Shown one piece after another: positions 1-20,740 of a stretch of DNA of 64,000 nucleotides (positions within the stretch are counted from its first letter, which is position 1; each line of letters begins with the position of its first letter). Below the pieces are notes generated by a model. The model saw only the letters and a program-made list of their open reading frames with translations. It was not told the DNA's origin and ran no database searches. Position numbers and translations under genes: made by a program. Source of the stretch: an uncultured Chlamydiae bacterium (GTDB lineage: Bacteria; Chlamydiota; Chlamydiia; Chlamydiales; SM23-39); contig CAWHDP010000002.1 in assembly GCA_963828125.1 (NCBI GenBank), positions 1,024,001-1,088,000 on the forward strand, read 5' to 3'.

Positions 1-959
1 TTCAAATAGAGACAGAACAGGGCCTTTTCCAAGCCAAAAATATCGTTATTGGCGTTGGACAGGTTCCTCATATTCCTCCATTCGCAAAAAAGGTCAATCA
101 TCCTACCGTTTTCCACGCTTCAGAGCTTTTAACCAAGCAATGGGCCCTGAAAGACAAACGCATCGCCGTAATCGGAGGAGGCCAGTCTGGAGCCGAAGTA
201 TTCTCAACCATCCTCTCTTCGCCAAAAATAGAGGCTCCCTCTAAATGCTTATGGATGTCCAGAAGAAGTAATTTTTTCCCCTTGGATGAATCCCCCTTTT
301 GCAATGAATTTTTTATGCCTATTTACAGCGAATATTTCAACAAACTTCCAGATCGAATCAAAAAGCATAAGCTAAAAGAACAAAATCTGATAAATAATGG
401 TATTTCTCTAGATACAATTAGACATATCTACCAGGCAATCTATCAAAATGCTTTTTTAAGCAAAAAACCTATCTCCATCAAGCTTTTGGCTGGGAGAGAG
501 GCACTCGATATCGATGCAAGAGGAAATTCTTGGAAACTGACTGCAAAACATATGGATACCGGAGAATATGAAGCCTTTGAGGCGGATATCATTGTACTAG
601 CAACAGGCTATCGATACGAAATCCCTAATTTTTTAAGTCCTATACGGAGCCGTCTGCAAATACAGGACGAGGAGCTAGTCATCCGAGACGATTTTTCAGC
701 TAGATGGGATGGCCCCGATCATCACCGGATTTATATACAGAATAATGCGATCGGCCAAAAAGGGATTGCCGATCCCAATTTAAGCCTCATCGCCTGGAGG
801 AGCGCCAAAATTATCAATAGCCTCATGAATCAACAGGTGTATAAAGATCAAAATATCCAGTCTTTCATCAGCTGGGGGGGAGGATCTTCGCAAAAAAATA
901 GCCCAGTTCCTTTCGATCTGCCCTGCAGTATAACCAGTGGGGATACAGTTGTCCTTTGA
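1..959 (+). CDS. Lysine/ornithine N-monooxygenase (IucD/SidA/PvdA family), 5' truncated by window edge
   Basis: Frame open from nt 3: KRIAVIGGGQSGAE (NADPH-binding), FFPLDESPFCNEFF, IVLATGY, GIADPNLSLIAWRS, all typical of this family. Confidence 0.9.
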   Translation, partial: QIETEQGLFQAKNIVIGVGQVPHIPPFAKKVNHPTVFHASELLTKQWALKDKRIAVIGGGQSGAEVFSTILSSPKIEAPSKCLWMSRRSNFFPLDESPFCNEFFMPIYSEYFNKLPDRIKKHKLKEQNLINNGISLDTIRHIYQAIYQNAFLSKKPISIKLLAGREALDIDARGNSWKLTAKHMDTGEYEAFEADIIVLATGYRYEIPNFLSPIRSRLQIQDEELVIRDDFSARWDGPDHHRIYIQNNAIGQKGIADPNLSLIAWRSAKIINSLMNQQVYKDQNIQSFISWGGGSSQKNSPVPFDLPCSITSGDTVVL

Positions 960-1992
960 CTGCGTAGTGATCGGCGCTGGAATCCTTGGAGTCACTATCG
1001 CCCGACAGCTTGCTCTGCAGTTTCCCAATAGGAGCGCTCTCCTCCTAGATCAGTCATTGGCTGGAGGAGGTGCCAGCCGTTTTTCCGCAGGATTGCATAT
1101 CCCATATGGATATAATTCTACGGTAAAGCGGCTCTCCGCAATGAGCGCCGAAGTCTATGCCAAGAGTCGCCAAAAGAGTGCGCACTTTCCCATCTACCCC
1201 CTTTTGATGACAGGAATCGTAAAAGCTGAAAAATATCCGGAAATTTCGAGCCGGTTTTATCAACTTGGACTTGGAGTCTTATCTAACAATCTTGTCCCCA
1301 AAAGCATTGGCACTGTCAAGCTTGAGGACGCCGATCTACTTTTCCCCATTTCAGATGCCCACTACGCAAACGTGGGTGGAATCATTCATCATTACCTCGA
1401 AGAAATCCGTCTGAGTCAAACCACAAAACTTTGGGAGGGTGTTGCCGTATCTGAGATCAGCTGCCAAAAGAACACCGTAGCGATATCGCTGGCCGACGGA
1501 AGACGCATAGAATCGCAAAAAGTGATTCTCGCTCCAGGTCCATGGGTTAAAAAAAATAGCTTGAACGGAATCCTAGATCATCTGCCTATCCGAACTAAAA
1601 AGATCGTAGCCCTCCACATCGATCGAAAACCGGAACCAAACGATCCCGGATTATTCCTCTTCGACCTGGATGCCTTTTTGCTTCCTCTACACCATCTAGG
1701 GTATTGGCTTTTTAGTTTCACATGCCAAGAATGGGAAGTATTGCCGGATCCAACTACACTTGCGATTCGTCCAGAGGACAGGGACCTCGCACTGAGTATT
1801 TTATGGAAATACTTTCCCGATCTGGCGCCCCATGCAAACTCGGGCCGTGTCTTTTGCGACGCTTATTCAAATGATCGAGTTCCCATCATTGCAAAACTAC
1901 CGATCAACCCGAATATCGTATTCATCGGAGCCACCAACGGATCTGGGTATCGTCTAGCTCCGGGCATCGCTATTGAAGGCATTCTCTTATGA
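937..1992 (+). CDS. FAD-dependent oxidoreductase, D-amino-acid oxidase/glycine oxidase family
   Basis: VVIGAGILG Rossmann motif, GASRFSAG, ILAPGPW, C-terminal GSGYRLAPG; overlaps end of the N-hydroxylase gene. Confidence 0.85.
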   Translation: MGIQLSFDCVVIGAGILGVTIARQLALQFPNRSALLLDQSLAGGGASRFSAGLHIPYGYNSTVKRLSAMSAEVYAKSRQKSAHFPIYPLLMTGIVKAEKYPEISSRFYQLGLGVLSNNLVPKSIGTVKLEDADLLFPISDAHYANVGGIIHHYLEEIRLSQTTKLWEGVAVSEISCQKNTVAISLADGRRIESQKVILAPGPWVKKNSLNGILDHLPIRTKKIVALHIDRKPEPNDPGLFLFDLDAFLLPLHHLGYWLFSFTCQEWEVLPDPTTLAIRPEDRDLALSILWKYFPDLAPHANSGRVFCDAYSNDRVPIIAKLPINPNIVFIGATNGSGYRLAPGIAIEGILL

Positions 1993-4900
1993 TCGCACAC
2001 ATCTTCTCCAATTCCTGTCTGTTTTTGATCCAAGAAAAATGATCGTGCAATAGAGGAATCGTCCTAAAACGATCTGGGCTTAAAAAAGCATCCATATGAT
2101 TGTAGTTGGCCTTTTCCACGTAGTACTCGAATATTTTTCGCTGCTCTCCATTATTTGGTACTTTGGTCGCCTTAAATAACACAACATTTTCCACAAAATC
2201 CACAACTTCAAACGAAGGAACGTATTTAAAGCTTATATCTTGACTTTCTATACACATCTCTTTCATAACTGTATTTAAACAAAACAACGGATCAACGAGA
2301 AAAATATTTTTTATGATCCCACATTTTGCAGCCAGCTGTTTGGCTACCTCTAAAGCCAACACCCCTCCAAAACTCCAGCCAAAAAATTGATAAGGGCCTT
2401 TTGGAGCCACAGATTGAATCAATGCAACGTATATATGAGCTAATTTTTCCACAGAAAAAGTATTCGCTGTTATTAAGCTAAAATTTTTCGCAATATATTC
2501 ATAAATATTTTCAAATAAAATCAGTTTGTAATCGGAAAGAAATTTTCCGATATTATTTACATAACTTTCTATTCCTCCTGTCGCGGGGGGAAATAAGAAT
2601 AAAGGAGGAGAAAGACGATTCTGATTGAGAATGTGAAATGGCTCAAAATCGACAAACTGGGGGATCATCCGCAGAGAATCTGTTGTTGAATTCAGGTTCT
2701 GAATATGAGAGGAAAGGGATCTGACAGTTGAATAAATAAAAATATCCTTTACATTTAAAGTTGGACACAATTCAATTTTCAATCTATGTATTAATTTTGC
2801 AGCTAACAAACTATTGCCGCCTATTTTGAAAAAATCATGATCTATACCTATACTATGATCATCACCCAATATATCGATCCAAACGAGGAGGATTTGTTTT
2901 TCCAGTGCATTTCTCGGAGAAATATTCAGATCAAGAGCTGCCATTTGTGGAATAGGCAAAGCCTTTTCATCGAGTTTTCCATTGACTGTTAATGGAAACC
3001 GATCCAAATGGATATAGATTTTCGGGATCATCTGTTTGGGGAGCTTAGTTTGTACAAAGTGGATAAACCGCTCTTCTGGAATAGGGGACGAGGCGAGATA
3101 GTAACAGATTAAAGAGAGTTGATTTCTCTCTGCCAAAAGTGGTTTGGCCAATACTGCGCATTGATTTACCCCTTTATAAGAAGAAATAACTCCCTCAATT
3201 TCTCTGAGCTCGATCCTATATCCTAAAATCTTCACCTGTCGATCATCTCTTCCGATGTATTCTAATCCCCCCCCTAATAGACTCCGAACCCTATCCCCTG
3301 TTTTGTAGAGCCTCCCAGAGAACTCGCAATCGGCGGACAACTGGGAGTTAATCTGGACAGGATCGATCCATTTTTCTGCAGTCAGTTTTGGGTGGTTGAG
3401 GTATCCTCTAGCAACCCCTTGACCGCCAATATATAACTCTCCAGGAGCGCCTATCGGAACCGGCTTTAGACTTTGATTGAGCACATATATCTTCTCGTTA
3501 GGCAATGGCCCTCCGATATACGATCGTTCTGAGAGAAACTGTGTATTGTATAGTTTCGAGGTAGACCAAATAGTCGTTTCAGTCGGGCCATATGCATTGA
3601 TGATTTGGAAACCGGCATTCAATAGATCCCGCGCTAATTTCGAGTCGAGAGGTTCTCCTCCTATGATAAATTTTGTATTGCCAATATTTGTAAATCGACA
3701 CACAATTAATCTAGATAGACTCGGCGTTAATTGAATGAAATCAAAATCGCTGCAATTTATTTTTTCAAAGTTTATATTCCCCAAAACGATCTTGCCTCCG
3801 GTCAAAAAGGGGAGGCCAAATTCAAGACCGAAGATATCAAATACATAACTCGTCATGCTATAGGTCGTTAGGGCCTTAACAGCGGCAAAATACGTTTCCC
3901 TAAACCCGAGTACTGCGGCTATATAGGAATGATGCTCAATCATCACCCCTTTGGGATGGCCTGTCGTACCCGACGTATAGATCACATAAGCCAAATTAGA
4001 GCTTAAGGCCAGAGTTTGTGGATTCGTCCTATTTTGAGCGAGATCCCCCATCCTATCTATCGGAATCATCTCGAAAGAATGGATAGCAGCTGTTCGCCGC
4101 AACACCGACAACTTCTCTGTGAACTCAGAATGGGTTAACACCAGTTGAATATTTGCGTCTTGAAGGATATAGGCAATCCTTTCGTCCGGATAGTTGATGT
4201 CGATGGGAACATAAGCGCCGCCCGCTTTTAAAATCGCTAAAATACCGATCAAACTTTTTTCATCTCGTTTAAGAAACAAAGCAATACGAGATTCTGGCCG
4301 AATACAAAACAATGAGTGAATGTAATTCGCGATTCTATTTGCTTCTATGTTCAGTTCAGAGTACGTAAGAGAAATATTTTCGCACTGAACTGCGATCTGG
4401 TTCGGCGTCTCTTCCACCTGTTGCTCAAAAAGCTGAGGGATCGTCGCAGCCTGGGGAAATGGATGATTCGTCGCATTCCACATAATGCAGACTTCACGTC
4501 GCCGTTCGTCAGAGAGATAGGACAAATCTTCTATCGAGAAATTAGGATTAATCCATATATTCTCAAATTGCTTTAAAATGACCAGATAAGTTTCTACGTA
4601 ACCATCAATCGTCTCTTTTTTAAATATAGATGTAGAAAAATTGATACACCCCTGAATATCCGATTGACTATCATCGATCAGGAGAGTGAGTTCAAATTTT
4701 GCCGTATTGAAAAACCTTAAGGAATCAAGCCGTTGAAAAAGCTCGCCCCATTGATTTTGCTGAAAACTTTGAAAAATAAATAATATCTGAAAAATGGGGT
4801 GTCGACTCGTATCAATCTCCTTAGAGAATTCACTCACTAATTTCTCAAAGGGCAATCCTTGGTGTTGTTGAGCCCGCGCCACCTCTTTGCCTACCTGTTC

Positions 4901-7900
4901 GATAAAGACGCTTAAGGTGGATCGAGCTGAGCATTTGATTCTGATGGGTAAAGTATTGACAAAAAAACCGATTAAATTTGCAGTCTGCGCCCGGGCTCTA
5001 TCGGCCGATAAAGCGCCAACGATGACGTCATCCTGCCCTGAATAGATTCTCAGCATCAGCACATAAGCGCTTAAGAACACTGTTGAGAGACTGACGTTGA
5101 GCTTCTTAGATATATTTCTCAACCCCTCCGACAGGGTAGATCCGATTGGGAACTGCACTTCATCTCCTCTGTATTCGATAAGAGGAGGTCTGGGATAGTC
5201 CGTGATTAGATTGAGGGGTTCAAAGGAAAGGAGCTGTTTCTTCCAAAAAAGGGACTCTTTCCTCAATCTATTTTTGGTCAGATATTTTCTTTGCCATAGG
5301 GCAAAGTCTTTATATTGAATAGATAAGGGAGCTAGACCCCAATCGGCCAAACACTTGGAATTGGCACTTAAGAAAGAGTCATAATATGATTTCCATTCTC
5401 CTAAAAAAATTTCCAAAGACCATCCATCAAATGCGATATGATGAATCACAATGCTCAGATACAATCCATTTGAATCACTCACCTCAATCAAGGCGACCTT
5501 GATCGGGATTTCATGGTATAAATCAAATACATGGGACATTTGCTGATCGAGAATGTCTCCCAGTTGCTCTTTCCGAATGATATTTTTTTTGATGATCGGA
5601 ACATTTAATTCCGACACATCTAAAACAAACAGACAATAAGCTCCCTCTCGATTCTTTTTAATAATCGTTCTTAAAGCCTCATGACGTTCAATCAATGCCA
5701 ATATGCTTTTCTCCAATATCTCGAGTTGAATTGAAGGTGAAATGTTAAAAAGCAACGGAATGTTATGTATACACAAAGAACCTGAAGAATCGGTTTTTGG
5801 CGACGTCGGCTTGATACCACCATCGGCCAAGAACTTGGATTTGGATCCACGTGAAAGCTCCCGATTCTTTAGGTTCTTTGCGTATACATGGGAGCCGCCT
5901 TCATATTCTTCTATAAATAAGATCCGTTCTTGGGCAAAAGAGACAAACTGTTCTTCTGAACCGACTAAAAATTGGGGGATTGGCCGCTCATTTTCTGATC
6001 GGACTGACATCTTGTGGTAAATGTTTTCAGCTGTTCGAGCCTCAAATATTGAAGAAATAGAAATCTGTTTTTTCAGAATTTTGGTGAATTGATTGACAAG
6101 TCTAATAGCCAATATACTATTGCCACCGAGCTGGAAGAAATCATCTTGCGGCCCGACTTGATCCATCGGAATATTGAGTATTTCAGCAATTATTTTGCGA
6201 ACTCCCTCTACTGTCGCGTTGAATATATTAGACTCTGTTGTTGAAATCAGAGGTTCAGGAAGTTTTTGTACGTCTAGTTTTCCATTCAAAGTCAGCGGAA
6301 TTTCTTTTAATCGAATGAATAGTTTGGGAACCATGTATTCGGGCACCTTGGAATGCAAATAGTTAACAAGTCCCTGAGTTTCGATCGCCTCTTTTTCAAC
6401 ATAGTAACCGATCAAATAATCTGTCCCATTTTCTCCCTCCTTTTTATGGAGAATGATCGCCTGTTTTATGGCTCTGTGCCCCATTAGAGCCTGCTCTATT
6501 TCTTGAAGCTCAATGCGAAATCCCCTTATTTTTACCTGGGAATCGATGCGGCCTATATACGACAAATTGCCATCTGAAAGTTGCCGAACTAAATCGCCTG
6601 ATTTATACAATCGGGAATGGATGCCTCTTCTTTTTTCTTCATCTGTTTGAAACGGATTTACAATAAATCTCTCCGCACTGATTTCCGGAAGATTCAAATA
6701 CCCTCTACTGATCCCCTCCCCGCCAACATACAATTCGCCCACCATTCCTTGGGGTACAAGATTTAAATCAGAGTCCAATACATAAGCACTTCTATTCGCG
6801 ATCGGTTTCCCAATAGGGACTCCACCAGTATCGCCCGTGCCATCTAGATTTTTGCTCACCTGGAAAACGGTGCTAATCGTCGTATTCTCCGTGGGTCCAT
6901 ATGCGTTAAAAACATGCTCAGGAGAATTCTTCGAATGAACTAGTTCGAGAATAAATTTCTTATTTAAAGCTTCACCTCCGACAAAAAACCACTTAACTCC
7001 CTTAAAAAGGGCCGGATTATACAAAAAAAGCTGATCAAACAAACTTTTAGTCAATAAGAGGACAGAAATTTTGTGATGTAGAAGACAATGTTCTAGTAGA
7101 TCAAGTCCTAAGGCTGATTTGGGTATGTACAATTTCGCCCCGTTTAATAAGGCTCCCCAGATTTCAAATGTTGCAGCGTCAAAAGAAATATTGGATATTT
7201 GAATGAATGAATCGTTTGAGGTCACTACCATATAGTCTACGTTTTTTACTAATGAGACAACGCCCCTATGTTCGATCATAACCCCTTTAGGCCGACCCGT
7301 TGTACCTGATGTGTAAAGAATGCAAGCTAAAGGATTGATTTCTAATTGATCGGGTATATTATCCTTAGAATATTGAAAAATTCGACTCAATATAGAGGGC
7401 TCATCAACCGACAATACCTCTATCTTTTGACTGTCGAACAGGCTTTGCAAATGAGCGATTATTTTTAGTGTAGAATCTATCAAAAGGATCTTAACCCCAG
7501 CATCTTTTAACATGTAGCCAATTCTTTCAAGAGGATAGTTTGGATCGATCGGTAGATAGGCGGCTCCTATTTTTAATACAGCTAAAAGACAGATAGGGAG
7601 GGTTTGACTTTTATCGAGGCATAGGGCAATCGCCCCATGATGAACTGGGTAGTTTTCTCTGATAAAATGGGCCCATTGATTCGACCGTTGATTGAGTTCA
7701 TTATAGCTCAATGAAAGATCACCATGAATAATTGCTATGTGATCGGGAAGGGCTCTCACTTGCTCGTAAAAAATCTCCACAATAGAGGGCGTCTGCTGAT
7801 TGCGTTTGTGAACAATATCTGGCCCCTTGGCCATGGCTACTAAGCGGGACATTGCCGTTGCCGTTAAAATGGGATATTGATGCGGGGCCAAATGGGGATT

Positions 7901-9178
7901 TTGGCAAACGTGAGAGAGCAACTCTTTGAGGTGATTAACCATCTGCTCGATTCGGGAGCCTTCGAAGAGATCTATTGGATAGTCAAAATTCAAGTAGCAT
8001 CCCGTTTCTGTCTCAATGATGGAAATGATCAAATCAAAAACCGAAGAGGCATTTGAGACAAACTGGCGCTGAATAGTCAGCCATTCCGATTTGTAATTGG
8101 GTCTCGATAAATCTACATGGTTTATTGTTGTCTGAAAGAGAGGATTATGAAGCGGACTCCACTCCGGTCTCATCGTCTCAACCAATGAGGCGAAAGGCAT
8201 TTCTTGATTAAGAAGGCCCCCTAGAATTTTTAATCGGACTTTATGGATCACATCGATAAACGTATGGCAATCGCTGAGGTCGATCCGGATGGGCAAAGTA
8301 TTGACAAAAAAGCCAATCATATTTTGGAACACCCTCCTTCCTCGATTCGCAAAGGGAATTCCGATCACCACATCTTTACTCCGGCTATATCGACTGAATA
8401 AGATGAACATAGCTGCGGAAAGAATCACAAACAGCGTGGCATTATTTTGACTGGCAATATTCTTTATGTTTTGCCACAAGTCGCTGGATAGGTGAACACT
8501 ATAAGAATTGCAGGTCTGCTCCCGAGGACATTTTGGGGAGAACGAGGTGGGCAATGAGAGGGTGGACGGCGCCCCCTCAAGCGATTTTTTCCAGTAGTTG
8601 AACTTTTCATGAGTAGAGCCTTCTGTAAAAGCTCTTTTTTGAAACTCCACGTAATCTACATATCGATTTTTACTATACCGCACACGGGTAGATTCATAAA
8701 ACATTCCTATTTCGCGTCCGATCTGATCAATAGACCATGCGTCCATAATTAGATGGTGAATAGTGATTAGAAAAAAACATAAATGATGCCCCATTTTACA
8801 AAGATGAAATCTGAATAAAGGTGCTTTTGAAAGGTCGAAAATAACCATACCCTCCCGACTCAAGAGGGCATCGAATTCTTCTCTCTTGTTGGATAAATCC
8901 AGAACATGGAGTTGACCCTTTACCTTTTTTTGAAAAACCTGGTATCCAACACCATCTATTTCAATAAATTTCGCCCTCAAAATTTCATGGCGCTGAATCA
9001 GTTTTTGAAGAGCTTTTTCAAAAATCGGAATCTGCAGTTCCCCCGAAATTTGCAGGATTGTCCGGACAGTGTTCACTCTTGTCCCTGGATAGAGCTTTTC
9101 TAAGTACCACAGTTGACTCTGATTGATCGACAGAGGATAGGAGAGTACGCCTGAGGCCGTTACGTTTTGCCTTGTCAT
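1970..9178 (-). CDS. Bimodular non-ribosomal peptide synthetase C-A-T-C-A-T-TE (2402 aa)
   Basis: C motifs HHLIMDAW and HHIAFDGW; A motifs YTSGTTGRPKG/YTSGTTGHPKG, NAYGPTE, LYK(S/T)GD, NGKLD; T motifs FFQLGGNSI and FFKIGGNSL; TE GWSFGG. Confidence 0.95.
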   Translation of the reverse strand: MTRQNVTASGVLSYPLSINQSQLWYLEKLYPGTRVNTVRTILQISGELQIPIFEKALQKLIQRHEILRAKFIEIDGVGYQVFQKKVKGQLHVLDLSNKREEFDALLSREGMVIFDLSKAPLFRFHLCKMGHHLCFFLITIHHLIMDAWSIDQIGREIGMFYESTRVRYSKNRYVDYVEFQKRAFTEGSTHEKFNYWKKSLEGAPSTLSLPTSFSPKCPREQTCNSYSVHLSSDLWQNIKNIASQNNATLFVILSAAMFILFSRYSRSKDVVIGIPFANRGRRVFQNMIGFFVNTLPIRIDLSDCHTFIDVIHKVRLKILGGLLNQEMPFASLVETMRPEWSPLHNPLFQTTINHVDLSRPNYKSEWLTIQRQFVSNASSVFDLIISIIETETGCYLNFDYPIDLFEGSRIEQMVNHLKELLSHVCQNPHLAPHQYPILTATAMSRLVAMAKGPDIVHKRNQQTPSIVEIFYEQVRALPDHIAIIHGDLSLSYNELNQRSNQWAHFIRENYPVHHGAIALCLDKSQTLPICLLAVLKIGAAYLPIDPNYPLERIGYMLKDAGVKILLIDSTLKIIAHLQSLFDSQKIEVLSVDEPSILSRIFQYSKDNIPDQLEINPLACILYTSGTTGRPKGVMIEHRGVVSLVKNVDYMVVTSNDSFIQISNISFDAATFEIWGALLNGAKLYIPKSALGLDLLEHCLLHHKISVLLLTKSLFDQLFLYNPALFKGVKWFFVGGEALNKKFILELVHSKNSPEHVFNAYGPTENTTISTVFQVSKNLDGTGDTGGVPIGKPIANRSAYVLDSDLNLVPQGMVGELYVGGEGISRGYLNLPEISAERFIVNPFQTDEEKRRGIHSRLYKSGDLVRQLSDGNLSYIGRIDSQVKIRGFRIELQEIEQALMGHRAIKQAIILHKKEGENGTDYLIGYYVEKEAIETQGLVNYLHSKVPEYMVPKLFIRLKEIPLTLNGKLDVQKLPEPLISTTESNIFNATVEGVRKIIAEILNIPMDQVGPQDDFFQLGGNSILAIRLVNQFTKILKKQISISSIFEARTAENIYHKMSVRSENERPIPQFLVGSEEQFVSFAQERILFIEEYEGGSHVYAKNLKNRELSRGSKSKFLADGGIKPTSPKTDSSGSLCIHNIPLLFNISPSIQLEILEKSILALIERHEALRTIIKKNREGAYCLFVLDVSELNVPIIKKNIIRKEQLGDILDQQMSHVFDLYHEIPIKVALIEVSDSNGLYLSIVIHHIAFDGWSLEIFLGEWKSYYDSFLSANSKCLADWGLAPLSIQYKDFALWQRKYLTKNRLRKESLFWKKQLLSFEPLNLITDYPRPPLIEYRGDEVQFPIGSTLSEGLRNISKKLNVSLSTVFLSAYVLMLRIYSGQDDVIVGALSADRARAQTANLIGFFVNTLPIRIKCSARSTLSVFIEQVGKEVARAQQHQGLPFEKLVSEFSKEIDTSRHPIFQILFIFQSFQQNQWGELFQRLDSLRFFNTAKFELTLLIDDSQSDIQGCINFSTSIFKKETIDGYVETYLVILKQFENIWINPNFSIEDLSYLSDERRREVCIMWNATNHPFPQAATIPQLFEQQVEETPNQIAVQCENISLTYSELNIEANRIANYIHSLFCIRPESRIALFLKRDEKSLIGILAILKAGGAYVPIDINYPDERIAYILQDANIQLVLTHSEFTEKLSVLRRTAAIHSFEMIPIDRMGDLAQNRTNPQTLALSSNLAYVIYTSGTTGHPKGVMIEHHSYIAAVLGFRETYFAAVKALTTYSMTSYVFDIFGLEFGLPFLTGGKIVLGNINFEKINCSDFDFIQLTPSLSRLIVCRFTNIGNTKFIIGGEPLDSKLARDLLNAGFQIINAYGPTETTIWSTSKLYNTQFLSERSYIGGPLPNEKIYVLNQSLKPVPIGAPGELYIGGQGVARGYLNHPKLTAEKWIDPVQINSQLSADCEFSGRLYKTGDRVRSLLGGGLEYIGRDDRQVKILGYRIELREIEGVISSYKGVNQCAVLAKPLLAERNQLSLICYYLASSPIPEERFIHFVQTKLPKQMIPKIYIHLDRFPLTVNGKLDEKALPIPQMAALDLNISPRNALEKQILLVWIDILGDDHSIGIDHDFFKIGGNSLLAAKLIHRLKIELCPTLNVKDIFIYSTVRSLSSHIQNLNSTTDSLRMIPQFVDFEPFHILNQNRLSPPLFLFPPATGGIESYVNNIGKFLSDYKLILFENIYEYIAKNFSLITANTFSVEKLAHIYVALIQSVAPKGPYQFFGWSFGGVLALEVAKQLAAKCGIIKNIFLVDPLFCLNTVMKEMCIESQDISFKYVPSFEVVDFVENVVLFKATKVPNNGEQRKIFEYYVEKANYNHMDAFLSPDRFRTIPLLHDHFSWIKNRQELEKMCAIIRECLQ
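5768..5886. mobile_element. TA-flanked palindromic miniature element (MITE/RPE-like) inserted in frame in the NRPS second C domain
   Basis: Inverted arms 5765-5793 and 5861-5889 (27/29 match); TA at both ends; net 117 bp = 39 extra aa between GSHV and HNIP. Confidence 0.8.
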
Positions 9179-10641
9179 GCGGAAACATCATTCAAAAAAC
9201 GGTTCAAAATGGCCTGGCGTTTTAATTTGTATTGCGATGTCAGCAGCCCATTTTCGACGGTGAAAGGTTCTGAGACCAAAATAAATTGAAAAATCTTTTC
9301 CTCTGGCAATAGTTCCCGATTGATTTCTTCTATAACGCCTTTTATTTCACGTTCTAGAACGTCAGGAGAAGAGGGCTCTATGAAAGCAGCCAAAAATACA
9401 GAGTTATTACTATACACCATACAATTTGTAATCAGCCCTGATTGGCACAATCTGTTTTCTATTTTCACCGGATTTATTTTTTTCCCACTACTTAAAACAA
9501 TGAGATCTTTCTTCCGTCCAGTGATAAATAAATATCCCTCTTCATCCATATATCCCAAATCTCCCGTAATCACATATCCATTAGAAAATGTAGCTTTTGT
9601 CTCCTCTTCAGATCCTTTGTAATATTTTATATTTACTTCATTGTGATTTTTAATCAAAATTTGGCCATCTTCATCAAATTGAATATCAATATTTGGGAGG
9701 AGCTTTCCTACGCTTCCAATTTTATGATTTTGAAAATTGTTTTTAGATACAATACAGGTTTCGTTCATCCCATATCCTTGAAACAGGGGGATACCCATTT
9801 GTTCGTAAAAAAGGAGAATGTCATCGCTTAAAGGAGCAGAGCCTGTCCAAAGATACCTGATGTTGCCTCCCCAAAAATTCTTGCAGTCTGATGTTTCGCT
9901 ATTTTTGGCCAGAAATCGCTGTCTCATAGTTTCATAGAAAAAAGGTACTCCCATGATGACTGTAGGTCTACTTTCTTGAATCGCTAACATGACTGAAAGC
10001 GAGGAGCTGATAACAATATTAAAATTATACAAAATCGCCGAATAGATCCAATATCTCTGCTGTAACAGATGGAGAGGGAGAAAGATCAGTATTTTGTCAT
10101 TTGATGTATGATTAAATAGCTCTTGAACGGAAACAATGGAGGCGTCGGCGCTTTTGACCTTTGCCTCAATCGCTTTAGGTCTTTGGGTAGAGCCTGATGT
10201 AAACTTGATCGTGAGTATGTCATCTGGAAGAAATTGGTGAGGCTGAAAGACGCCGCAGTATGACGATTTGCCTATTACATCGAATGAAATCACATGCGGT
10301 TCATGCCTATCCTCATTCCCGAGATTTGTGAAAATAACTCGCAGCTCATATTCATTGATCAGTGTGGACAAATCGTATTTCCCATTGGGATCGAACGGCA
10401 CAGAAATCAAACCTGCAGCTATGCAAGCCAGGTCAAATACAACAAATTCATATCCATTTGTTCCAATGATCCCTACCCGAGATTGGGGACGAAGGTTCAA
10501 TTGACGAAAACAACCAAAAACGCGAATTACGTCAAGATAGATCTCTTTAAAAGCGCGCCTTTTTAGCTGCCCCTTGCTAAAATACTCAAGAGAAGCTGTT
10601 GCGCTCGACATGCGGGGAATAATTTCGTTGATCACTTTCAT
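9175..10641 (-). CDS. AMP-dependent acyl ligase (long-chain acyl-CoA synthetase-like)
   Basis: FTSGSTQRPK, QGYGMNE, TGDLG, GRKKDLIVLSSGKKINP, LLTSQYKLKR; 4-bp overlap with NRPS start. Confidence 0.85.
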   Translation of the reverse strand: MKVINEIIPRMSSATASLEYFSKGQLKRRAFKEIYLDVIRVFGCFRQLNLRPQSRVGIIGTNGYEFVVFDLACIAAGLISVPFDPNGKYDLSTLINEYELRVIFTNLGNEDRHEPHVISFDVIGKSSYCGVFQPHQFLPDDILTIKFTSGSTQRPKAIEAKVKSADASIVSVQELFNHTSNDKILIFLPLHLLQQRYWIYSAILYNFNIVISSSLSVMLAIQESRPTVIMGVPFFYETMRQRFLAKNSETSDCKNFWGGNIRYLWTGSAPLSDDILLFYEQMGIPLFQGYGMNETCIVSKNNFQNHKIGSVGKLLPNIDIQFDEDGQILIKNHNEVNIKYYKGSEEETKATFSNGYVITGDLGYMDEEGYLFITGRKKDLIVLSSGKKINPVKIENRLCQSGLITNCMVYSNNSVFLAAFIEPSSPDVLEREIKGVIEEINRELLPEEKIFQFILVSEPFTVENGLLTSQYKLKRQAILNRFLNDVSA

Positions 10642-10760
10642 TTCGGAATAAAATAGACGAAAAACAATTTTTAAAACAGAAATTTTTGAGTCGCATCCAG
10701 CGTATAAAATTTTCTTGCAAAAATTCGTACGCCTTCAATACTCTTGCTTAAGAGGTTGCC

Positions 10761-11060
10761 GTGAGCAAAGAAAAGCAAGAATCAGCTCGGCTTAAGGGTT
10801 TGATCTGCGACTCCCTGTTGGGGAGTCTCAGAAAATTAAAAAAAAGTGGAGGATCCTTGAATCGGACTGTCGACGCAAATAGCCTTTTACAGGAAGAACT
10901 GCAGATATCCTCCCTTGAAATGATCTCTCTGATTACGGATCTGTGTGATACCTTCAGCATCGATATCACTAGAATTTCCGATGTAGATCTCATCAAAATG
11001 AGCCACGTTGCCGATATTGCCGATATTTTAGCTCTAAAAAAAATAGAGTCTTCTTTATGA
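10761..11060 (+). CDS. Stand-alone acyl/peptidyl carrier protein
   Basis: 99 aa, LQEELQISSLEMISL phosphopantetheine-site-like motif, VADIADIL C-terminal helix. Confidence 0.7.
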   Translation: MSKEKQESARLKGLICDSLLGSLRKLKKSGGSLNRTVDANSLLQEELQISSLEMISLITDLCDTFSIDITRISDVDLIKMSHVADIADILALKKIESSL

Positions 11061-11812
11061 ATCGGATCTTTTCTCATTTTTTGAATCATCCCCCTACTAG
11101 AGCCTTTCACATTGGAGTACCCATGAATCATATACAAGAAGCTCAGCCAATGATCCCCTCGCAAATATGTGCATTGAAACAGCAATTTTCTCAGGAGAAT
11201 TTTTTTGATTACGACATTGTGCTCAAAAATAGCTTAGTCCGCCTCAGGCCCATCACTCCCACAGATCAAGAACATTTAACTCAACTAGCCCTTAAAGAGG
11301 ACATCTGGGCCTATTTCGCGCTGAAAATGTCTGACTCTCAAAGCATTAAAAATTATCTAAAAGAAGCTTTAGAACAACGGGAATCGAAATTAAGGTATAC
11401 ATTTGTCATCGAACATCCGGTGACAAAACAACACATGGGTTCAACAGCTTTTGGTAATTTTTCCAAAAAAGATAGCCGGATTGAATTCGGTTGGAGTTGG
11501 CTTGGGAAAGAATTTCAAGGAACCGGCGTCAATTCTCAAGTGAAATTTCTACTCCTTGCCTTTGGTTTCGATATTCTCGATTTGGAAAGAGTTGAGGCCA
11601 AAACAGATGTATTGAACAAAAGAGCCAGAGGAGCGCTGATTAAAGTGGGGATGACTCAAGAGGGGGTCTTGCGCAGCCATACCTTAATGCCAGATGGTAG
11701 AAGGCGCGATACGATTTACTACAGCATGCTGAAAGGGGAGTGGCCTCTAAGGAGAGATGAAGTATTTAGCGGATGCGATTTCAATCTCTCTCTGAAACCA
11801 AAGATCGGCTGA
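11057..11812 (+). CDS. GNAT N-acyltransferase (RimJ/RimL type)
   Basis: RIEFGWSWLGKEFQGTGVN, NKRARGALIKVG, EGVLRSH, RDTIYYSML. Confidence 0.85.
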   Translation: MNRIFSHFLNHPPTRAFHIGVPMNHIQEAQPMIPSQICALKQQFSQENFFDYDIVLKNSLVRLRPITPTDQEHLTQLALKEDIWAYFALKMSDSQSIKNYLKEALEQRESKLRYTFVIEHPVTKQHMGSTAFGNFSKKDSRIEFGWSWLGKEFQGTGVNSQVKFLLLAFGFDILDLERVEAKTDVLNKRARGALIKVGMTQEGVLRSHTLMPDGRRRDTIYYSMLKGEWPLRRDEVFSGCDFNLSLKPKIG

Positions 11813-11824
11813 ATGCTGTATTTA

Positions 11825-12895
11825 TTATTGGACGACCCCTAAAGAGAAATTTTGGGTTGGATTTTTACAGGGATGTCCTACACGGATGGAAATTGTCTGA
11901 TTGTGCAAGTCTAAAATAACAGCTGCCACAGTATCTTCTCTCCGCGCATTCCCCTCAGAATGGGCGCAGAGACCTACCGGGTACAAAGAATGATCCGAAA
12001 ATATCTCAAATAGTCTTTCTGGATCTGTTTCCCAATTTTGGGCAGACACGAGTTCTCTAAGCCGTTCCAAGCGTAGTTTGGATGCGTTCCGGCTAAATAT
12101 GTTCATGCTGTCTAAATTTATAAAATCAGCATGCAAAAAATGATTTGTCCTCACTAGCTTGGATCCCCTAGTGACTCGCAAATTATCGGAGGTCATTTCA
12201 ACGATCGCTAAATGAGATCTATCGCAGATCGTGAAACTCCTCGAGGAGCTTCGCCGTATTTGACGAAGAGCCTGCAAACATTCTTCTAATGAGCGCAACT
12301 GGAGAAGGTGTCGTATGAGAAGATAGGGGGAGACGCCAGGCTTCCAATCATCAGAAGAGACAAAATTAATGCCGATGCCCAATCCAGCGCTGTTCATGCC
12401 CAGAAATCCCAGCAATCCGGAGAAACTAAACATCAAGATCTCTGGAATATTCTGATCGGATGAGCAAATCCGAAAGATCCTTCCTAAAGCGGCCATGACA
12501 GGGTTTTGATCCACTGTCTGAGCTATGACAGCCTCTTGCTGTTCAAGTTTAGCGATCAAGCTACATTCGCCGGAGGCCAAGCTGGATTTTCCGACGATTT
12601 CCCTCCGCATCTGCAATAAAATAGCCTCGTCGTAAGAGATGCCCGCCCCATCAGCCAGCCCCCTGAGTTCTTTGGCCAGCAAGGGGACGTCCTGCTCAAT
12701 GATCCATTTATGTTCTTGCACCCTATCAAGAATCTTTTCCCACGGGAGTTTTTTCGTTCGATTTGCATTGATATGGGAAAAATCATCCGCTAAAAAGGAT
12801 CGGATAACGGATCCCTCGGACAAACCGTGACAGTAGCCAATCGAATAAGGATCCCCGGACAGGGAAATCGGTTTGAGTTGAGTCACGTGGGACAC
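11825..12895 (-). CDS. C45 family Ntn-hydrolase/acyltransferase (isopenicillin-N acyltransferase-like)
   Basis: ELRGLADGAG, GECS autoproteolytic Cys, AQTVD, GMNSAGLGIGIN, RTNHFL, GHPC. Confidence 0.85.
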   Translation of the reverse strand: MSHVTQLKPISLSGDPYSIGYCHGLSEGSVIRSFLADDFSHINANRTKKLPWEKILDRVQEHKWIIEQDVPLLAKELRGLADGAGISYDEAILLQMRREIVGKSSLASGECSLIAKLEQQEAVIAQTVDQNPVMAALGRIFRICSSDQNIPEILMFSFSGLLGFLGMNSAGLGIGINFVSSDDWKPGVSPYLLIRHLLQLRSLEECLQALRQIRRSSSRSFTICDRSHLAIVEMTSDNLRVTRGSKLVRTNHFLHADFINLDSMNIFSRNASKLRLERLRELVSAQNWETDPERLFEIFSDHSLYPVGLCAHSEGNARREDTVAAVILDLHNQTISIRVGHPCKNPTQNFSLGVVQ

Positions 12896-14898
12896 GGCAT
12901 ATAAGCTCCCCGCTTGAGGATGGCTAGCTCCCCCAGATCGACTTGAGCATTAGCGATGGCAAAAGGGGGGATTTGCGGCCAAGAAATCCCATTTCGAGCT
13001 GCTGGGTGGCCCAATTGTCTCCAAAGGTGAGTCGCAAACTCCGGCATAAGAGGATATGTCAAAACAGCAAGCACGCCGGCAGCTGTTAGTTCGAGAGCCA
13101 TAGAGGTCCGAAATTCAGGATTTGAGTGAAGGGATAAAGGCCAATCTTTCTCTGCTTCAGAAAAGCAGATACACTCATCCACAAAACGGCTAATCAATCT
13201 GCAGGCTCTTTGCAGAGAAAAAGAGGGCACTTCGTAAGAACTGGCCACACCCTGTAAGTAAAATTCCATGCTTCCAAAAAAAACCTTATGCTCGTGGGTC
13301 CAGAGACCCGCTTCAGGCACTTTCCCGCTAAAATACTCCTTGATCTTGGCGTCGACCCCCAAAAGCCAGCGCCCCCAGCGCCCGAATTCCTGCTCTATAA
13401 ATTCATGAAAAGCCTCTATTGTAAAGTTGGTTCTACCTGCCTCAGGCCTTGTATAGGCTAAGTAAAACCGGATTTCATCTGGAGAGGCTTCTTTTAATAA
13501 ATCTCGTCCCCAAATGAGATGCCCTCGACTCGTCGAGAACTTAGATCCCTCCAACGAGTAAAACTCATTACACACATAGTCAATCTGCAATGGTTGATTG
13601 GGGAAAGCGGCAAGGTAGATAGCAGGGAATAATACAGTATAATAAAACGAATTATCAAAACCAAAAAAATGAACAATTTTCCCCTGATTTGGCAATCCAA
13701 AGTTATTTACACTCAACCCTTTTCTTCGTTCTAATTCTCTGATGGAAAATAAAAAAGCAAACGACATCTCGAACCAGGCTGAAATTTTGTGATCGGCGAA
13801 TGATTCGAGGGGCACGGCAACTCCCCAACGGCTCGGATAAGTGATAGGGAAATCGGGCAATTGATCTGTATTGAATTGATCGAATAAAACACGCAGTCGA
13901 GACCGAAGCGTCGCATGATCGTGATGGTTTTTAATCAAATTCGCGAACTGTCTCAAAGGGAAAAAAAGTCTTTGAATCTCTTTGATCACGGGCCTTGTCT
14001 TGGAACGGCTTGATACAGCACCCACTACATCCAAACAATAGTGGGGATGGCCACACTCTTCGCATAAATTTCCGGTACACGGACTCTCACAGCGAGGGCA
14101 ATAGCCTTTGATTTTCCCTTCCTGTAAAAATTCATGACTCTCGGACTCAAAAAATTCAGCTGTCGATTTCTGGATGAATGCCCCCGTTTGATAGAGCTGA
14201 TTGAAAAACCTCGCCAACCCATCTCGATATTCTTCTGAGTGCAGAGGCCTTAAATACACATCGAGCTGGATATTCATCGCGTCCAAGGTCTGTCGAATTT
14301 CCTCAGAAAAATAATCGGCGACCTGTTTTGGAGAGAGTCCTATTTGTTCGCTCTTATCTAAAACCCCTGTTTGGAAATCATCTGACCAGGAAATATTGTA
14401 CGCCTCTTTCCCTCGCATTTTTGAATACCGTACGCAAACATCTCCTCCCAAAAAAGGACCCGATAAATGTCCGAGATGTAAATCGCCATTGGGAGTAGGG
14501 GGTCCTGATGTGATGTAAATCGGCCCATCTGATTGTTTTGTTTCCTCTTTTGCAGCATGGAAAGCCCTTTGGTAGTCTCGCCAGTAGATACTGAGGAATG
14601 ACAGGGTCTCACCCCCTCTATTCAACAAACTATGACTTTCGAAGGGATCAAAATGGATTAAATCTCCTGCTTTTACCTTTTGAGTCCTCCCTTCGCTATC
14701 TATACTTCCCTCCCCTTTGACAATGAAAAAAGATTCAGATTCATCATGCCTATGCTCTTGAGTCCTTTGATTGGAAGCGACAGAGATATGGACGATATGA
14801 AAAGGAGCTCTAGAAGATCCGTTCTCAGGGAATAGATCAACCATTTGAATATCTTGCAAGCTACCCCGCTGTTCAAAAAGAGAAATCACTTCCATCAT
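12883..14898 (-). CDS. Cupin / methionyl-tRNA-synthetase-like fusion (putative hydrazine synthetase)
   Basis: N-terminal cupin EHRHDESESFFIVKGEG...FESHSL; MetRS-like PPTPNGDLHLGH, Zn knuckle CPRC..CEECG, GFDN, KFSTS; no C-terminal tRNA-binding domain. Confidence 0.88.
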   Translation of the reverse strand: MMEVISLFEQRGSLQDIQMVDLFPENGSSRAPFHIVHISVASNQRTQEHRHDESESFFIVKGEGSIDSEGRTQKVKAGDLIHFDPFESHSLLNRGGETLSFLSIYWRDYQRAFHAAKEETKQSDGPIYITSGPPTPNGDLHLGHLSGPFLGGDVCVRYSKMRGKEAYNISWSDDFQTGVLDKSEQIGLSPKQVADYFSEEIRQTLDAMNIQLDVYLRPLHSEEYRDGLARFFNQLYQTGAFIQKSTAEFFESESHEFLQEGKIKGYCPRCESPCTGNLCEECGHPHYCLDVVGAVSSRSKTRPVIKEIQRLFFPLRQFANLIKNHHDHATLRSRLRVLFDQFNTDQLPDFPITYPSRWGVAVPLESFADHKISAWFEMSFAFLFSIRELERRKGLSVNNFGLPNQGKIVHFFGFDNSFYYTVLFPAIYLAAFPNQPLQIDYVCNEFYSLEGSKFSTSRGHLIWGRDLLKEASPDEIRFYLAYTRPEAGRTNFTIEAFHEFIEQEFGRWGRWLLGVDAKIKEYFSGKVPEAGLWTHEHKVFFGSMEFYLQGVASSYEVPSFSLQRACRLISRFVDECICFSEAEKDWPLSLHSNPEFRTSMALELTAAGVLAVLTYPLMPEFATHLWRQLGHPAARNGISWPQIPPFAIANAQVDLGELAILKRGAYMPCPT

Positions 14899-15688
14899 CT
14901 ACCCTCATGTTCTTGCCATATAGTATACAGACTGAAGTATCAGATAACGGCGCATAGGTCTGTACATCTAGTGTAAATCCATTTTTTTCTAAAATATCGA
15001 CAAACATTGTGCTGCTCTGTTTATTTTCTATTTCGATCACCACTTGTCTGATTTTTTTCCAGTGACTTGATTCTATACCTTGAATCACATCCCATTCACT
15101 TCGTTCGACATCCACCTTTAATAGATCTATTCTCGGAAGCTGGTACTGATGAATGATCTGGGAGAGGGTCACTGAGGGGCAAAGAAGGGTCGTTTTTCCC
15201 AATTTCGAGTCGATTAATTGATCTAACAGGTGGGAGCTGAAAGAAAGTCCGGTCTCTTGCTGCTGGTAAAGAGCTGTGGCTTTCAAAAACGTTCGATCTT
15301 TAGCAGCATTGGGATAACAACCCGATTGGAGAGAAGACTTTGGGTAATGGGTAAAGCGCCTGGTACCTATTGAGTTAGATACGGCGACATTGAATAACTC
15401 CATATTCCAACCGAAAAAATGGGAATTGATTCTGAGAATTTCGAAAACTTCTGGGATCGGTTCAAAGGCGAAGACTTTGGCTCCCTGGCAATGGAGAAAC
15501 ACGAAAAGGGAGAACATTCCTATATTGGCGCCTACATCGAATACAATTGGATCTTTGTCTAGAATCAAGCCATATCGCAGGTAAAGGCGATCTTCAAATA
15601 TCTCTCTAAAGAGAAAATCTGTCTCATTTTTATTTATATGAGCAAACTCGATCCCATTGGGAAGCAAGCATTTTTCTAAAAGAGACAT
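14873..15688 (-). CDS. FkbM family methyltransferase
   Basis: VFDVGANIGMFS, AFEPIP, IDLLKVDVERSE. Confidence 0.9.
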   Translation of the reverse strand: MSLLEKCLLPNGIEFAHINKNETDFLFREIFEDRLYLRYGLILDKDPIVFDVGANIGMFSLFVFLHCQGAKVFAFEPIPEVFEILRINSHFFGWNMELFNVAVSNSIGTRRFTHYPKSSLQSGCYPNAAKDRTFLKATALYQQQETGLSFSSHLLDQLIDSKLGKTTLLCPSVTLSQIIHQYQLPRIDLLKVDVERSEWDVIQGIESSHWKKIRQVVIEIENKQSSTMFVDILEKNGFTLDVQTYAPLSDTSVCILYGKNMRVDDGSDFSF

Positions 15689-15695
15689 AGATCAC

Positions 15696-16580
15696 CTAGA
15701 AAGGGGCTCTGATTCCGGCCACAATTATATTTGGCATAAAGCTAATGATTGCGCCTTCATTCTTAGCCTCTTCCTTCAATTTCTGAACCAAAAGATCGAT
15801 TGTTTCTCGGGTCGACAAACCATGCTCTAGGAGGAATTTCTCACACTCCAAAGTGCCTCTAGCCATTTGCAATTTTTCATATTCGGTTTTTAACAACGGA
15901 TGAAAATATTCGTAATCAAGTATACGGAGACCCACATCAAGATAGAAAGGCAGCAATCTCTTTCCGAAGTCAGGATCTTTGCCATAGTGCGCATATATTT
16001 TGAGGGCTAACGCGAGCCATTCATCGACTACTTGGCTTTCTGGATAGCTGAAAATATGGCTGGCAATCAGATCTTGAATGACGACAACCCCAGAACCTGG
16101 TTTTAGTAGGGTTTGAATGGTATTTAAAACCGATCTATGATCGATTAAGTGAATAAATACAAAACGGGAAAAAACAAAATCCAACTGGTTTTCTAAATCG
16201 AGGGAATCGAGATCGTATGCAGAAACAACCTGAAAATCTATATTATCAATTCCCTCTTTAGCGGCCATTGCCTTTGCCAATCGGATCTGTTCTCCGCTAC
16301 TGTCAACTGCGATCACTCGTCCGTTTGGTTGAACCTCTTTGGCAAGCCAAACGCTCATTTGCCCAGCTCCGCAACCGAGTTCCAACACGGTCATTCCAGC
16401 CTTTAGGCCCATTTTTTTTAAAAAAGTTTGGCTGGAATCGTTCGTAAGGCTATTCAGAACATCGAGTCTCTCCTCACCTTTTTCACCGATCTCCAAAAAA
16501 TATCCCTTATCCTGCATAGCCGCTCCTTGATGGTATGAGGTCAATAACAACAAAAAGAATAAAAATTTTCTTAAGCGCAT
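15696..16580 (-). CDS. Class I SAM-dependent methyltransferase
   Basis: VLELGCGAG, VIAVDSS, DFVFSRFVFIHL, LLKPGSG. Confidence 0.85.
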   Translation of the reverse strand: MRLRKFLFFLLLLTSYHQGAAMQDKGYFLEIGEKGEERLDVLNSLTNDSSQTFLKKMGLKAGMTVLELGCGAGQMSVWLAKEVQPNGRVIAVDSSGEQIRLAKAMAAKEGIDNIDFQVVSAYDLDSLDLENQLDFVFSRFVFIHLIDHRSVLNTIQTLLKPGSGVVVIQDLIASHIFSYPESQVVDEWLALALKIYAHYGKDPDFGKRLLPFYLDVGLRILDYEYFHPLLKTEYEKLQMARGTLECEKFLLEHGLSTRETIDLLVQKLKEEAKNEGAIISFMPNIIVAGIRAPF

Positions 16581-16693: not shown

Positions 16694-16746
16694 CCCTGAA
16701 GAACGGCTGACAGATCCAACATTCAATCCGATAAAGGTGAAGGACG
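16694..16746 (+). repeat. 53-bp intergenic copy of a segment of the downstream ankyrin/J-domain gene (18430-18482)
   Basis: ccctgaagaacggctgacagatcca... matches 18430-18482 at 49/53. Confidence 0.8.
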
Positions 16747-18691: not shown

Positions 18692-18714
18692 CTTTTGGGA
18701 CGCAGCAACGATAA

Positions 18715-20295: not shown

Positions 20296-20331
20296 TCTCG
20301 TCTATAATCGGGGCAAAATCTGAGGGGTTTC

Positions 20332-20730: not shown

Positions 20731-20740
20731 GGAATGAACG

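Follow-up and report, generated by a model that had tools for sequence, protein, structure and literature searches.

Hydrazine synthetase (HS) pathways are characterized from free-living actinomycetes and from a small number of proteobacteria. The available sections of PMC10445470 and PMC13061610, with those of PMC11705231 as a further source on homologue function, assign the enzymes of the azaserine (Azs), triacsin (Tri) and dob (Dob) pathways: AzsL/Tri26/DobG is the hydroxylase, AzsM/Tri27 the oxidase, AzsN/Tri28/DobE the HS and AzsU/Tri15 the phosphopantetheinyl transferase (PPTase). In the same two papers, the GNAT enzyme AzsS/Tri31/DobB succinylates hydrazinoacetate, the AMP-dependent ligase AzsP/Tri29/DobC puts the succinylated acid on the carrier AzsQ/Tri30/DobQ, and the C45 enzyme AzsT/DobA strips the succinyl group. 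We analyzed a 64,000-nucleotide stretch (the window; G000:C2:1024001-1088000) of a metagenome-derived Chlamydiae genome, G000, which has two contigs, 2.37 Mb, and is 95.4% complete. The first part of the window, together with the DNA just upstream, holds counterparts of these enzymes next to a nonribosomal peptide synthetase (NRPS) gene. Judging from sequence, the cluster most likely makes a small hydrazine-containing peptide by way of a hydrazino-acid cassette and the NRPS, and was acquired horizontally.

Genes were called from the window's open reading frames and Pfam scans, and 20 kb upstream (L001) were scanned likewise. The cluster spans 17.9 kb and 11 genes: it begins with the PPTase, ~1.3 kb before the first letter of the window, and its last gene, a methyltransferase, ends at position 16580. 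All 11 genes are open and full-length compared with their homologues (open reading frames and tblastn). Its members are as follows, in window coordinates except for the first.

G000:C2:1022704-1023591, divergent from the hydroxylase gene: Sfp-type PPTase (AzsU/Tri15 type)
3-959, plus strand: flavin N-hydroxylase (Spb38/AzsL/Tri26/DobG type; PF13434, E 8e-49)
937-1992, plus strand: DAO-type FAD oxidase (Spb39/AzsM/Tri27 type; PF01266, E 1.6e-24)
1970-9178, minus strand: NRPS of 2402 aa, C1-A1-T1-C2-A2-T2-TE (Pfam and motifs)
9175-10641, minus strand: AMP-dependent ligase (AzsP/Tri29/DobC type; PF00501 and PF23562)
10761-11060, plus strand: free carrier protein of 99 aa (AzsQ/Tri30/DobQ type; AzsQ-type profile, E 5.6e-9)
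11057-11812, plus strand: GNAT of succinyl-transferase type (AzsS/Tri31/DobB type; PF13302, E 1.7e-17)
11825-12895, minus strand: C45-family hydrolase (AzsT/Tri14/DobA type; PF03417)
12883-14898, minus strand: HS with a zinc-type cupin and a MetRS-like domain (Cupin_2 and tRNA-synt_1g)
14873-15688, minus strand: FkbM-family S-adenosylmethionine (SAM) methyltransferase, putatively tailoring (PF05050, TIGR01444)
15696-16580, minus strand: class I SAM methyltransferase, putatively tailoring (PF13847 and related families)

All ten gene types listed by a first-pass annotation of the sequence were recovered as open frames with matching domains at the same coordinates, and its proposal of an azaserine/triacsin-like set held gene for gene: the hydroxylase, HS and oxidase trio together with the adenylating enzyme, carrier, GNAT and C45 hydrolase corresponds to the azaserine/triacsin/dob machinery at 34-47% identity. 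Searching a genome collection for HS relatives, we confirmed 584 of 599 candidate stretches and compared the best 80 loci by tblastn with the cluster proteins, counting a match if at least half of the query was covered. The annotation had called the characterized examples mostly actinobacterial; this is true of those examples only, several phyla being present among the best 80 loci.

Relatives of the hydroxylase adjoin the HS in 77 of the 80 loci (39-44% identity over >90% of the length). The FAD oxidase, whose gene overlaps that of the hydroxylase by 23 nt, has relatives in 72 loci (34-42% over >89%), and so has the AMP-ligase (34-40% over >90%), which overlaps the NRPS start by 4 nt and reaches 62% identity in L002, a chlamydial metagenome-assembled genome (MAG). 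GNAT relatives occur in 69 loci (38-47%). The C45 hydrolase scores 219 bits against a cut-off of 85 in the NCBIfam model C45_proenzyme NF040521 and has relatives in 53 loci (31-38% over ~97%). Hydroxylase, oxidase, AMP-ligase, GNAT and C45 hydrolase lie together within 10 kb in 50 of the 80, among them Streptomyces fragilis and Glycomyces harbinensis (azaserine), Nocardia ninae (dob/nin) and the azs-like cluster of Kitasatospora aureofaciens ATCC 10762; since so many related loci hold all five partners, chance does not account for their co-location. At the hydroxylase/oxidase, AMP-ligase/NRPS, carrier/GNAT, HS/C45 and FkbM/HS borders, the genes share 4-26 nt, as co-translated operons would be expected to do.

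The free carrier is the least conspicuous member: its open reading frame gave no Pfam match even at E 10 and weak acyl carrier protein matches in NCBIfam (E 3e-5). A profile built from the AzsQ-type carriers of 38 loci recovered it and matched neither NRPS T domain; the phosphopantetheine serine, within an ISSLEM stretch, aligns with the profile serine. The carrier's position is kept in L002 and in L003, a MAG titled Rickettsiales bacterium. The class I methyltransferase opens an operon-like run of methyltransferase, FkbM, HS and C45 genes and is 73% identical to its L002 and 33% to its L003 counterpart; the FkbM methyltransferase has a homologue of 57% identity in the matching place in L002. 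Besides L002, the sole other locus of the 80 with an FkbM-type homologue near HS and NRPS is L077 (an uncultured Acidobacteriota contig; HS at 10001-11995), where it shows 35% identity over 95% of its length. The negamycin preprint nowhere mentions a methyltransferase.

The hydroxylase gene crosses the window start, with its 3' 318 codons inside and its beginning 393 nt upstream; the full protein has 450 aa. Its best PDB matches are the siderophore N-hydroxylases 6xbb, 7us3, 5o8p and MbtG, and PF13434 hydroxylases are typical of siderophore pathways, as would suit a hydroxamate siderophore built by hydroxylase and NRPS with the MetRS-like protein in an unrelated role. We regard this as highly improbable. 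The genome has no IucA/IucC gene, which disposes of the siderophore operon that the first-pass annotation had considered, and Pfam scans found no transporter or receptor gene in the cluster. Moreover, the hydroxylase and oxidase genes are co-linear, and azaserine-type clusters have all seven genes of the hydrazinoacetic acid (HAA) cassette in common with G000.

We then asked what the cupin fusion is. Its best PDB match is PyrN-C (9vq4; E 3.6e-75), while true methionyl-tRNA synthetases (MetRS) score 2e-46 or worse, and it stays below every NCBIfam MetRS cut-off (254 versus 587 bits for the best model). The housekeeping MetRS of G000 is a separate gene on the other contig (C1:258864-260462), 26% identical to the HS. 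The motifs HLGH (141-144) and KFSTS (453-457) align with those of PyrN-C, for which the accessible part of bioRxiv 2025.08.22.671884 gives HLGH 147-150 and KFSTx 458-462 as signatures; the G000 MetRS has HFGH and QFSKS instead. Four zinc-knuckle cysteines are conserved. Within the cupin metal site H49/H51/E55/H89, H51, E55 and H89 are invariant and H49 nearly so in a 28-sequence alignment, and the HHEH pattern appears in the HS of G000, L002, L003, S. fragilis and L080 and is absent from the G000 MetRS. The PF13434 hydroxylase lies 12 kb away in the same cluster.

A FastTree phylogeny of 87 rows placed the G000 protein within the HS group, with an HS/MetRS split of branch length 2.13 and 100% local support (Shimodaira-Hasegawa-like) and with the G000 MetRS and five chlamydial MetRS as far outgroup. 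Partial sequences (L039, L089) and those with internal stops (L087, L088) had been dropped beforehand; long-branch warnings were raised for L003 and L083. The HS of G000, L002 and L003 form one clade with 100% local support, sister to a clade with the glycine code. Among 5.8 billion proteins, 7663 candidates included 1224 HS relatives at E <= 0.001; the closest are 64%, ~51% (three proteins) and 44% identical, and the others of the best 120 listed are 34-43% identical. By all these sequence measures, the fusion protein is a hydrazine synthetase and not a housekeeping MetRS, the grouping that the annotation had named as the one to check.

Which amino acid this HS uses is less certain. By the eight pocket positions of the Matsuda code, as quoted in the available part of PMC12376268, the G000 HS reads GPDQWMNY, against reference codes in that same part of TPDQWMNH for glycine (Spb40, AzsN), SADQWYGH for threonine and SFVQALNR for glutamate. 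The exact glycine code is found in 72 of the 80 related loci. GPDQWMNY is confined to three of the 81 HS compared, those of G000, L002 and L003, and is also found in the metagenome proteins P0003 and P0004, which match L002/L003; the metagenome HS codes form a continuum xPDQWMN[H/Y]. Because the code differs from that of glycine, the amino acid may be another one, small or acidic. A non-glycine residue (e.g. Ala, Ser or Asp) would give an alpha-substituted hydrazino acid starter, as in thrazarine, and not hydrazinoacetate. The clade-restricted code speaks for this, as do the change of Thr to Gly at position 1, which makes the pocket larger, and that of His to Tyr at position 8, common to the APDQWMNY enzymes of a Bradyrhizobium MAG and Rhizobium rhizogenes. 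An Asp-using didomain HS of a Bradyrhizobium is reported in the accessible part of bioRxiv 2025.08.22.671884, and in thrazarine a Thr-derived unit is served by the same downstream cassette (PMC12376268, in part). However, six of the eight positions, including Asn416 and the Trp/Met pair, are identical to the glycine code; side-chain room is attributed in the sections available of the thrazarine paper (PMC12376268) to the replacement of Asn416 by Gly; and the nearest HS relatives outside the clade, by overall sequence, carry the glycine code. Since Asn416 and the Trp/Met pair are kept, we take glycine as the best guess, with somewhat better than even confidence, and hold a non-glycine starter to be a real but lesser possibility.

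The NRPS is the only one in the genome, PF00668 matching its two C domains and nothing else genome-wide. Pfam scores were 558, 479, 88 and 69 bits for C, A, T and TE, respectively, and the motifs are in place: HHLIMDA at 141 (C1), HHIAFDG at 1246 (C2), Ser1021 (T1), Ser2123 (T2) and GWSFG at 2267 (TE). Against elongation-type C domains (5u89, Txo1, Txo2 and the fuscachelin peptidyl carrier protein-C, PCP-C), C1 gave E values of 1e-52 to 1e-41, as compared with 3e-19 to 2e-15 against lipid-starter C domains; this resemblance fits a small, amino-acid-like donor delivered in trans. The binding-pocket codes derived by hand are DAFLFGATIK (A1) and DILQIGAIWK (A2). Among the matches listed from the 5.8-billion-protein collection, none exceeded 39% identity to the NRPS and none was named chlamydial; the truncated L002 protein possibly fell outside the length range searched.

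The annotation had also supposed that the acyl-CoA dehydrogenase of the hydrazone pathways (AzsF/Tri22/DobM type) might lie upstream. It was found neither there nor elsewhere: PF00441 and PF02770 had no match in the 95.4%-complete genome, controls being positive in 9 of 14 genomes, and the AzsF-like protein of L080 as a tblastn query against G000 gave a best E of 6.8. Because this enzyme is absent from the genome, we expect the hydrazine to be retained and not turned into a hydrazone or diazo group, and the annotation's other option, a product that keeps a hydrazine or hydrazide, is thus the one favoured. The closest precedent is a cluster without AzsF, proposed in the accessible portion of the thrazarine paper (PMC12376268) to carry the hydrazinyl group through assembly. 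A KS-like (ketosynthase-like) shuttle of the AzsD/Tri13 type was not found among the main open reading frames scanned from malQ to the transglutaminase gene; the search did not extend to the remaining genome, where FabH-type genes would confound it.

A hydrazone or diazo product could still arise if another oxidase replaced the dehydrogenase. Diazo-forming pathways employ varied, partly uncharacterized oxidases (PMC13061610 and PMC12376268, in the parts available), and a FAD_binding_4 oxidase gene lies 1.2 kb upstream of the PPTase gene. Yet this gene and the Cfa gene that overlaps it are native accessory genes of the genus: four of 13 other same-genus genomes have the two side by side (58-78% identity), with no HS seen in those four, and the pair has the native GC of 0.493 and stands beside none of the 80 HS loci. 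For the same reasons both genes were rejected as cluster members. The Pfam scans found no haem-oxygenase-like, P450 or ferritin-like oxidase gene in the cluster either, and we consider a hydrazone or diazo end product improbable. The two upstream genes (L001:16018-18622) overlap by ~170 nt, an overlap that recurs in the pair-carrying same-genus genomes; in-frame stop codons fall within the FAD_binding_4 match in three of these four.

We propose the following route to a retained hydrazine. The flavin N-hydroxylase would convert lysine to N6-hydroxylysine. The MetRS-like domain of the HS would adenylate a small amino acid and esterify it onto the N-OH, and the cupin domain would rearrange the ester to form the N-N bond. 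The FAD oxidase would then cleave the lysine-amino acid hydrazine to free the hydrazino acid, whose terminal hydrazine nitrogen the GNAT would cap with succinyl. The AMP-ligase is predicted to charge the free carrier, primed by the cluster PPTase, with the capped acid, and the C45 hydrolase to uncap the carrier-bound unit. As the cluster has no KS-like acyl shuttle, the hydrazino-acyl unit would pass directly from the free carrier to the N-terminal C1 domain. The NRPS would add one hydrophobic-type residue (A1) and one glycine (A2), and the TE would release the product, which the two SAM methyltransferases would methylate.

Several points weigh against this proposal. At positions 1 and 8, as well as at one more position used in the PyrN structure paper, the HS code is not that of glycine. 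The A-domain codes were mapped by hand with GrsA numbering, and the same mapping applied to the LgrA Val/Gly modules (6mfy) gave non-canonical codes. The transfer from the free carrier to C1 is a step that we only infer. The missing dehydrogenase is by itself not a strong predictor of product type, because, of 67 loci combining hydroxylase, oxidase, AMP-ligase and GNAT, 18 likewise show none within 10 kb, against 49 that have it there. Finally, the methyltransferase/ankyrin junction at the right cluster end lies at a dispersed repeat and is bridged by no short-read contig.

We checked next how the cluster sits in the chromosome. Beyond the PPTase, the upstream order is Cfa cyclopropane-fatty-acid synthase, FAD_binding_4 oxidase, malQ, a CesT-type chaperone, copN, sctV and sctU, a chlamydial type III secretion neighbourhood that is kept in same-genus genomes. 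Four of these carry sctV-copN-chaperone-malQ, then 0.1-4 kb, then the transglutaminase/TPR gene and clpB. In G000, the malQ and transglutaminase/TPR anchors are 24.6 kb apart, with an extra stretch of ~22.7 kb, and 13 cluster-region proteins plus the ankyrin protein had no match at the syntenic region of the four genomes. The 17.9 kb from PPTase to methyltransferase has a GC of 0.418 versus 0.486 +/- 0.033 in equal-sized windows, of which 0.8% are as low. The extra DNA is composite, a native FAD_binding_4/Cfa pair plus the low-GC cluster.

Such a host is unusual, as the annotation had remarked. With the G000 HS as query, 400 scored genomes of the phylum yielded a cupin-bearing HS in two (G000 and G379), nine other matches being housekeeping MetRS (26-28% identity), and none was found in the seven other same-genus genomes sampled. 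The L002 contig, titled Chlamydiae bacterium, has the order methyltransferase, FkbM, HS, C45, GNAT, carrier, AMP-ligase and NRPS as in G000, at 52-73% identity. Its cluster adjoins a DUF6314 gene, bioB and an aminotransferase gene; since the orthologues of these neighbours (69-86% identical) lie on the other contig of G000, the L002 cluster is at a different locus. The Rickettsiales-labelled MAG (L003/L100; GC 0.30) holds the methyltransferase, HS, C45, GNAT, carrier, AMP-ligase, PPTase, NRPS, hydroxylase (56%) and oxidase (48%), and its NRPS of ~1300 aa with C, A, T and TE domains is consistent with a single module. Finding the cluster at separate loci of two chlamydiae, and also in a Rickettsiales-labelled MAG, points to gene flow among intracellular bacteria. 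In L003, three tandem LuxR-family (GerE) regulator genes and an ankyrin gene (L003:1764-4427) precede the cluster, which has a class IV aminotransferase, a D-2-hydroxyacid dehydrogenase and a glyoxalase-fold gene in addition to the chlamydial set.

The HS of G379, a chlamydial genome of another family, belongs to a second, unrelated cluster (L099, G379:C4:1073001-1093000; HS at L099:10005-11894, minus strand). This HS is 35% identical to that of G000, with the code TPDQWMNN, and its neighbours encode a methyltransferase, a pre-ATP-grasp ligase, a lysine-2,3-aminomutase-like radical SAM enzyme, an N-hydroxylase, a DAO oxidase, a Cupin_8 protein and a beta-lactamase-fold protein. This gene set is reminiscent of a negamycin-like (beta-lysyl/methyl-hydrazinoacetate) product that is reached by another route.

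Might the cluster be foreign to the chlamydial genome, as a chimera or bin contaminant, or a dead relic? The genome is metagenomic, short-read contigs end at repeats on both cluster sides, the cluster GC departs from that of the genome, and the adjacent malQ is frameshifted. Nevertheless, we judge this very unlikely, and likewise assembly chimerism on its own. A run that is possibly the source holds the whole stretch, with contig word depths of 12.8, 13.3 and 12.8 over the cluster and the chlamydial flank, and a run from a second study has pieces of the hydroxylase, the oxidase, the HS and a flanking gene at >=99%. The repeats at the ends are dispersed repeats of G000 itself, the syntenic L002 cluster has its own chlamydial neighbours, and no gene of the 11 is broken. 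Synteny, word depth and the L002 copy thus leave the contig, whose possible chimerism the annotation had raised, looking sound.

Two further features lie at the right cluster end.

16740-16801: 62-bp dispersed repeat, just beyond the right cluster end, where contigs of three runs end
16919-18691, plus strand: ankyrin-repeat protein (ankyrin Pfam families), between malQ and the transglutaminase/TPR gene

The 62-bp repeat has full-length copies (88-97% identity) at G000:C2:224151-224212, 226423-226484 and 891042-891101 and at C1:207528-207588, as well as three further shorter matches. An alternative junction at 16792 (runs X2 and X3) was rejected, the loose ends probably belonging to other copies of this repeat. 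The ankyrin protein is probably not biosynthetic; its gene was also rejected as a conserved cluster partner, as it does not resemble the ankyrin gene next to the L003 cluster. A direct repeat of 53 bp (92% identity) stands upstream of the gene (16694-16746) and recurs in its 3' part (18430-18482), bracketing most of it. On the left side, a repeat of ~29 nt, with >20 copies genome-wide, occurs at the malQ/FAD_binding_4 border and between Cfa and PPTase. The malQ gene (GH77; L001:14564-16038, G000:C2:1018564-1020038) is split into two overlapping frames, either by a true frameshift that made it a pseudogene or by an assembly error; among the four same-genus loci, the two that were checked, L092 (G300) and L094 (G312), have both halves in one frame. 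Base composition is patchy further on, with GC up to 0.53 at 18001-24000 (transglutaminase/TPR and clpB genes) and 0.385-0.51 through the rest of the window.

What is known of chlamydial secondary metabolism comes from antiSMASH-type surveys only (PMC9666466, PMC13229535), and hydrazine has no occurrence in the survey of chlamydial biosynthetic gene clusters PMC9666466. The N-N bond literature that we searched describes no chlamydial example: 'chlamyd' occurs 0 times in PMC11705231 and PMC8664883, and in PMC13061610 and PMC13274452 only in a reference to a Chlamydia trachomatis Fe:Mn oxygenase (CADD). One may speculate, and we do so tentatively, that obligate intracellular bacteria exchange and use N-N chemistry: a distinct GPDQWMNY HS clade with a short NRPS, common to chlamydiae and a Rickettsiales-labelled, endosymbiont-type genome, would make a methylated peptide with a free hydrazine that acts in or for the eukaryotic host. 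On the same tentative footing, the peptide could be, for example, an effector reactive towards carbonyls or pyridoxal phosphate (PLP) enzymes, or a defensive metabolite, with the hydrazino-acyl unit handed by a free carrier directly to an ordinary C domain, and the amino acid of this clade may be new to the enzyme family. The small molecule may matter in the interaction with the host. The cluster itself is unexpected in chlamydial biology and of use to N-N enzymology. Being compact, complete and free of late oxidation steps, the cluster is a tractable case; it raises the questions of what role a retained hydrazine has in a natural peptide, which amino acid the new code picks and whether an ordinary C domain can accept a hydrazino-acyl carrier.

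In summary, the kind of system is known, an HS hydrazino-acid cassette feeding an assembly line, and its core chemistry is established. The locus differs in its host phylum, in its separate HS clade with a variant code, in the absence of the dehydrogenase and the KS-like shuttle, in its ordinary C-A-T-C-A-T-TE NRPS and in its two methyltransferases. PyrN of the pyrazomycin pathway (9vq4, 9vqj, 9vr2) has in common with the G000 HS the two-domain family, the HLGH/KFST motifs, the Asp/Asn at the alpha-amino/carboxyl site and the zinc-knuckle cysteines. It uses glutamate, however, with the code SFVQALNR, and its Arg390 and Arg425 are Ala and Tyr in G000; the similarity of the G000 HS to PyrN is far below that to glycine-type HS (257 versus ~500 bits). 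Triacsin (tri) and dob (N. ninae) have the free-carrier logic of succinylating, loading, oxidizing and uncapping (Tri31/29/30/22/14, DobB/C/Q/M/A), and, according to the sections available, their hydrazonoacetyl unit goes to polyketide machinery to give an N-hydroxytriazene or a diazo group. In contrast, the G000 cluster has neither the dehydrogenase nor a polyketide synthase, and its acceptor is an NRPS.

The azaserine clusters (azs/aza) of S. fragilis and G. harbinensis have homologues of AzsL, M, N, P, Q, S, T and U in common with G000 (34-47% identity, near-full length), and an NRPS acceptor. They have in addition the AzsF dehydrogenase, the KS-like AzsD, the AzsE/AzsG oxidases, saccharopine dehydrogenases and a transporter, and a carrier domain fused to the HS, all of which the G000 cluster is without. 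The azaserine NRPS is Cy-A-CP and forms an ester to serine, whereas that of G000 has ordinary C domains in two modules closed by a TE; G000 adds the two methyltransferases and has GPDQWMNY in place of TPDQWMNH. Thrazarine (thz, Streptomyces coerulescens), as far as the available part of PMC12376268 describes it, likewise has an HS cassette without AzsF, a proposed hydrazinyl intermediate and a non-glycine code, SADQWYGH (Thr). Its cluster carries the KS-like ThzD, the azaserine-type NRPS ThzO and the oxidase ThzE and ends in a diazo ester, while the G000 cluster runs from its cassette to its own NRPS without those extra genes.

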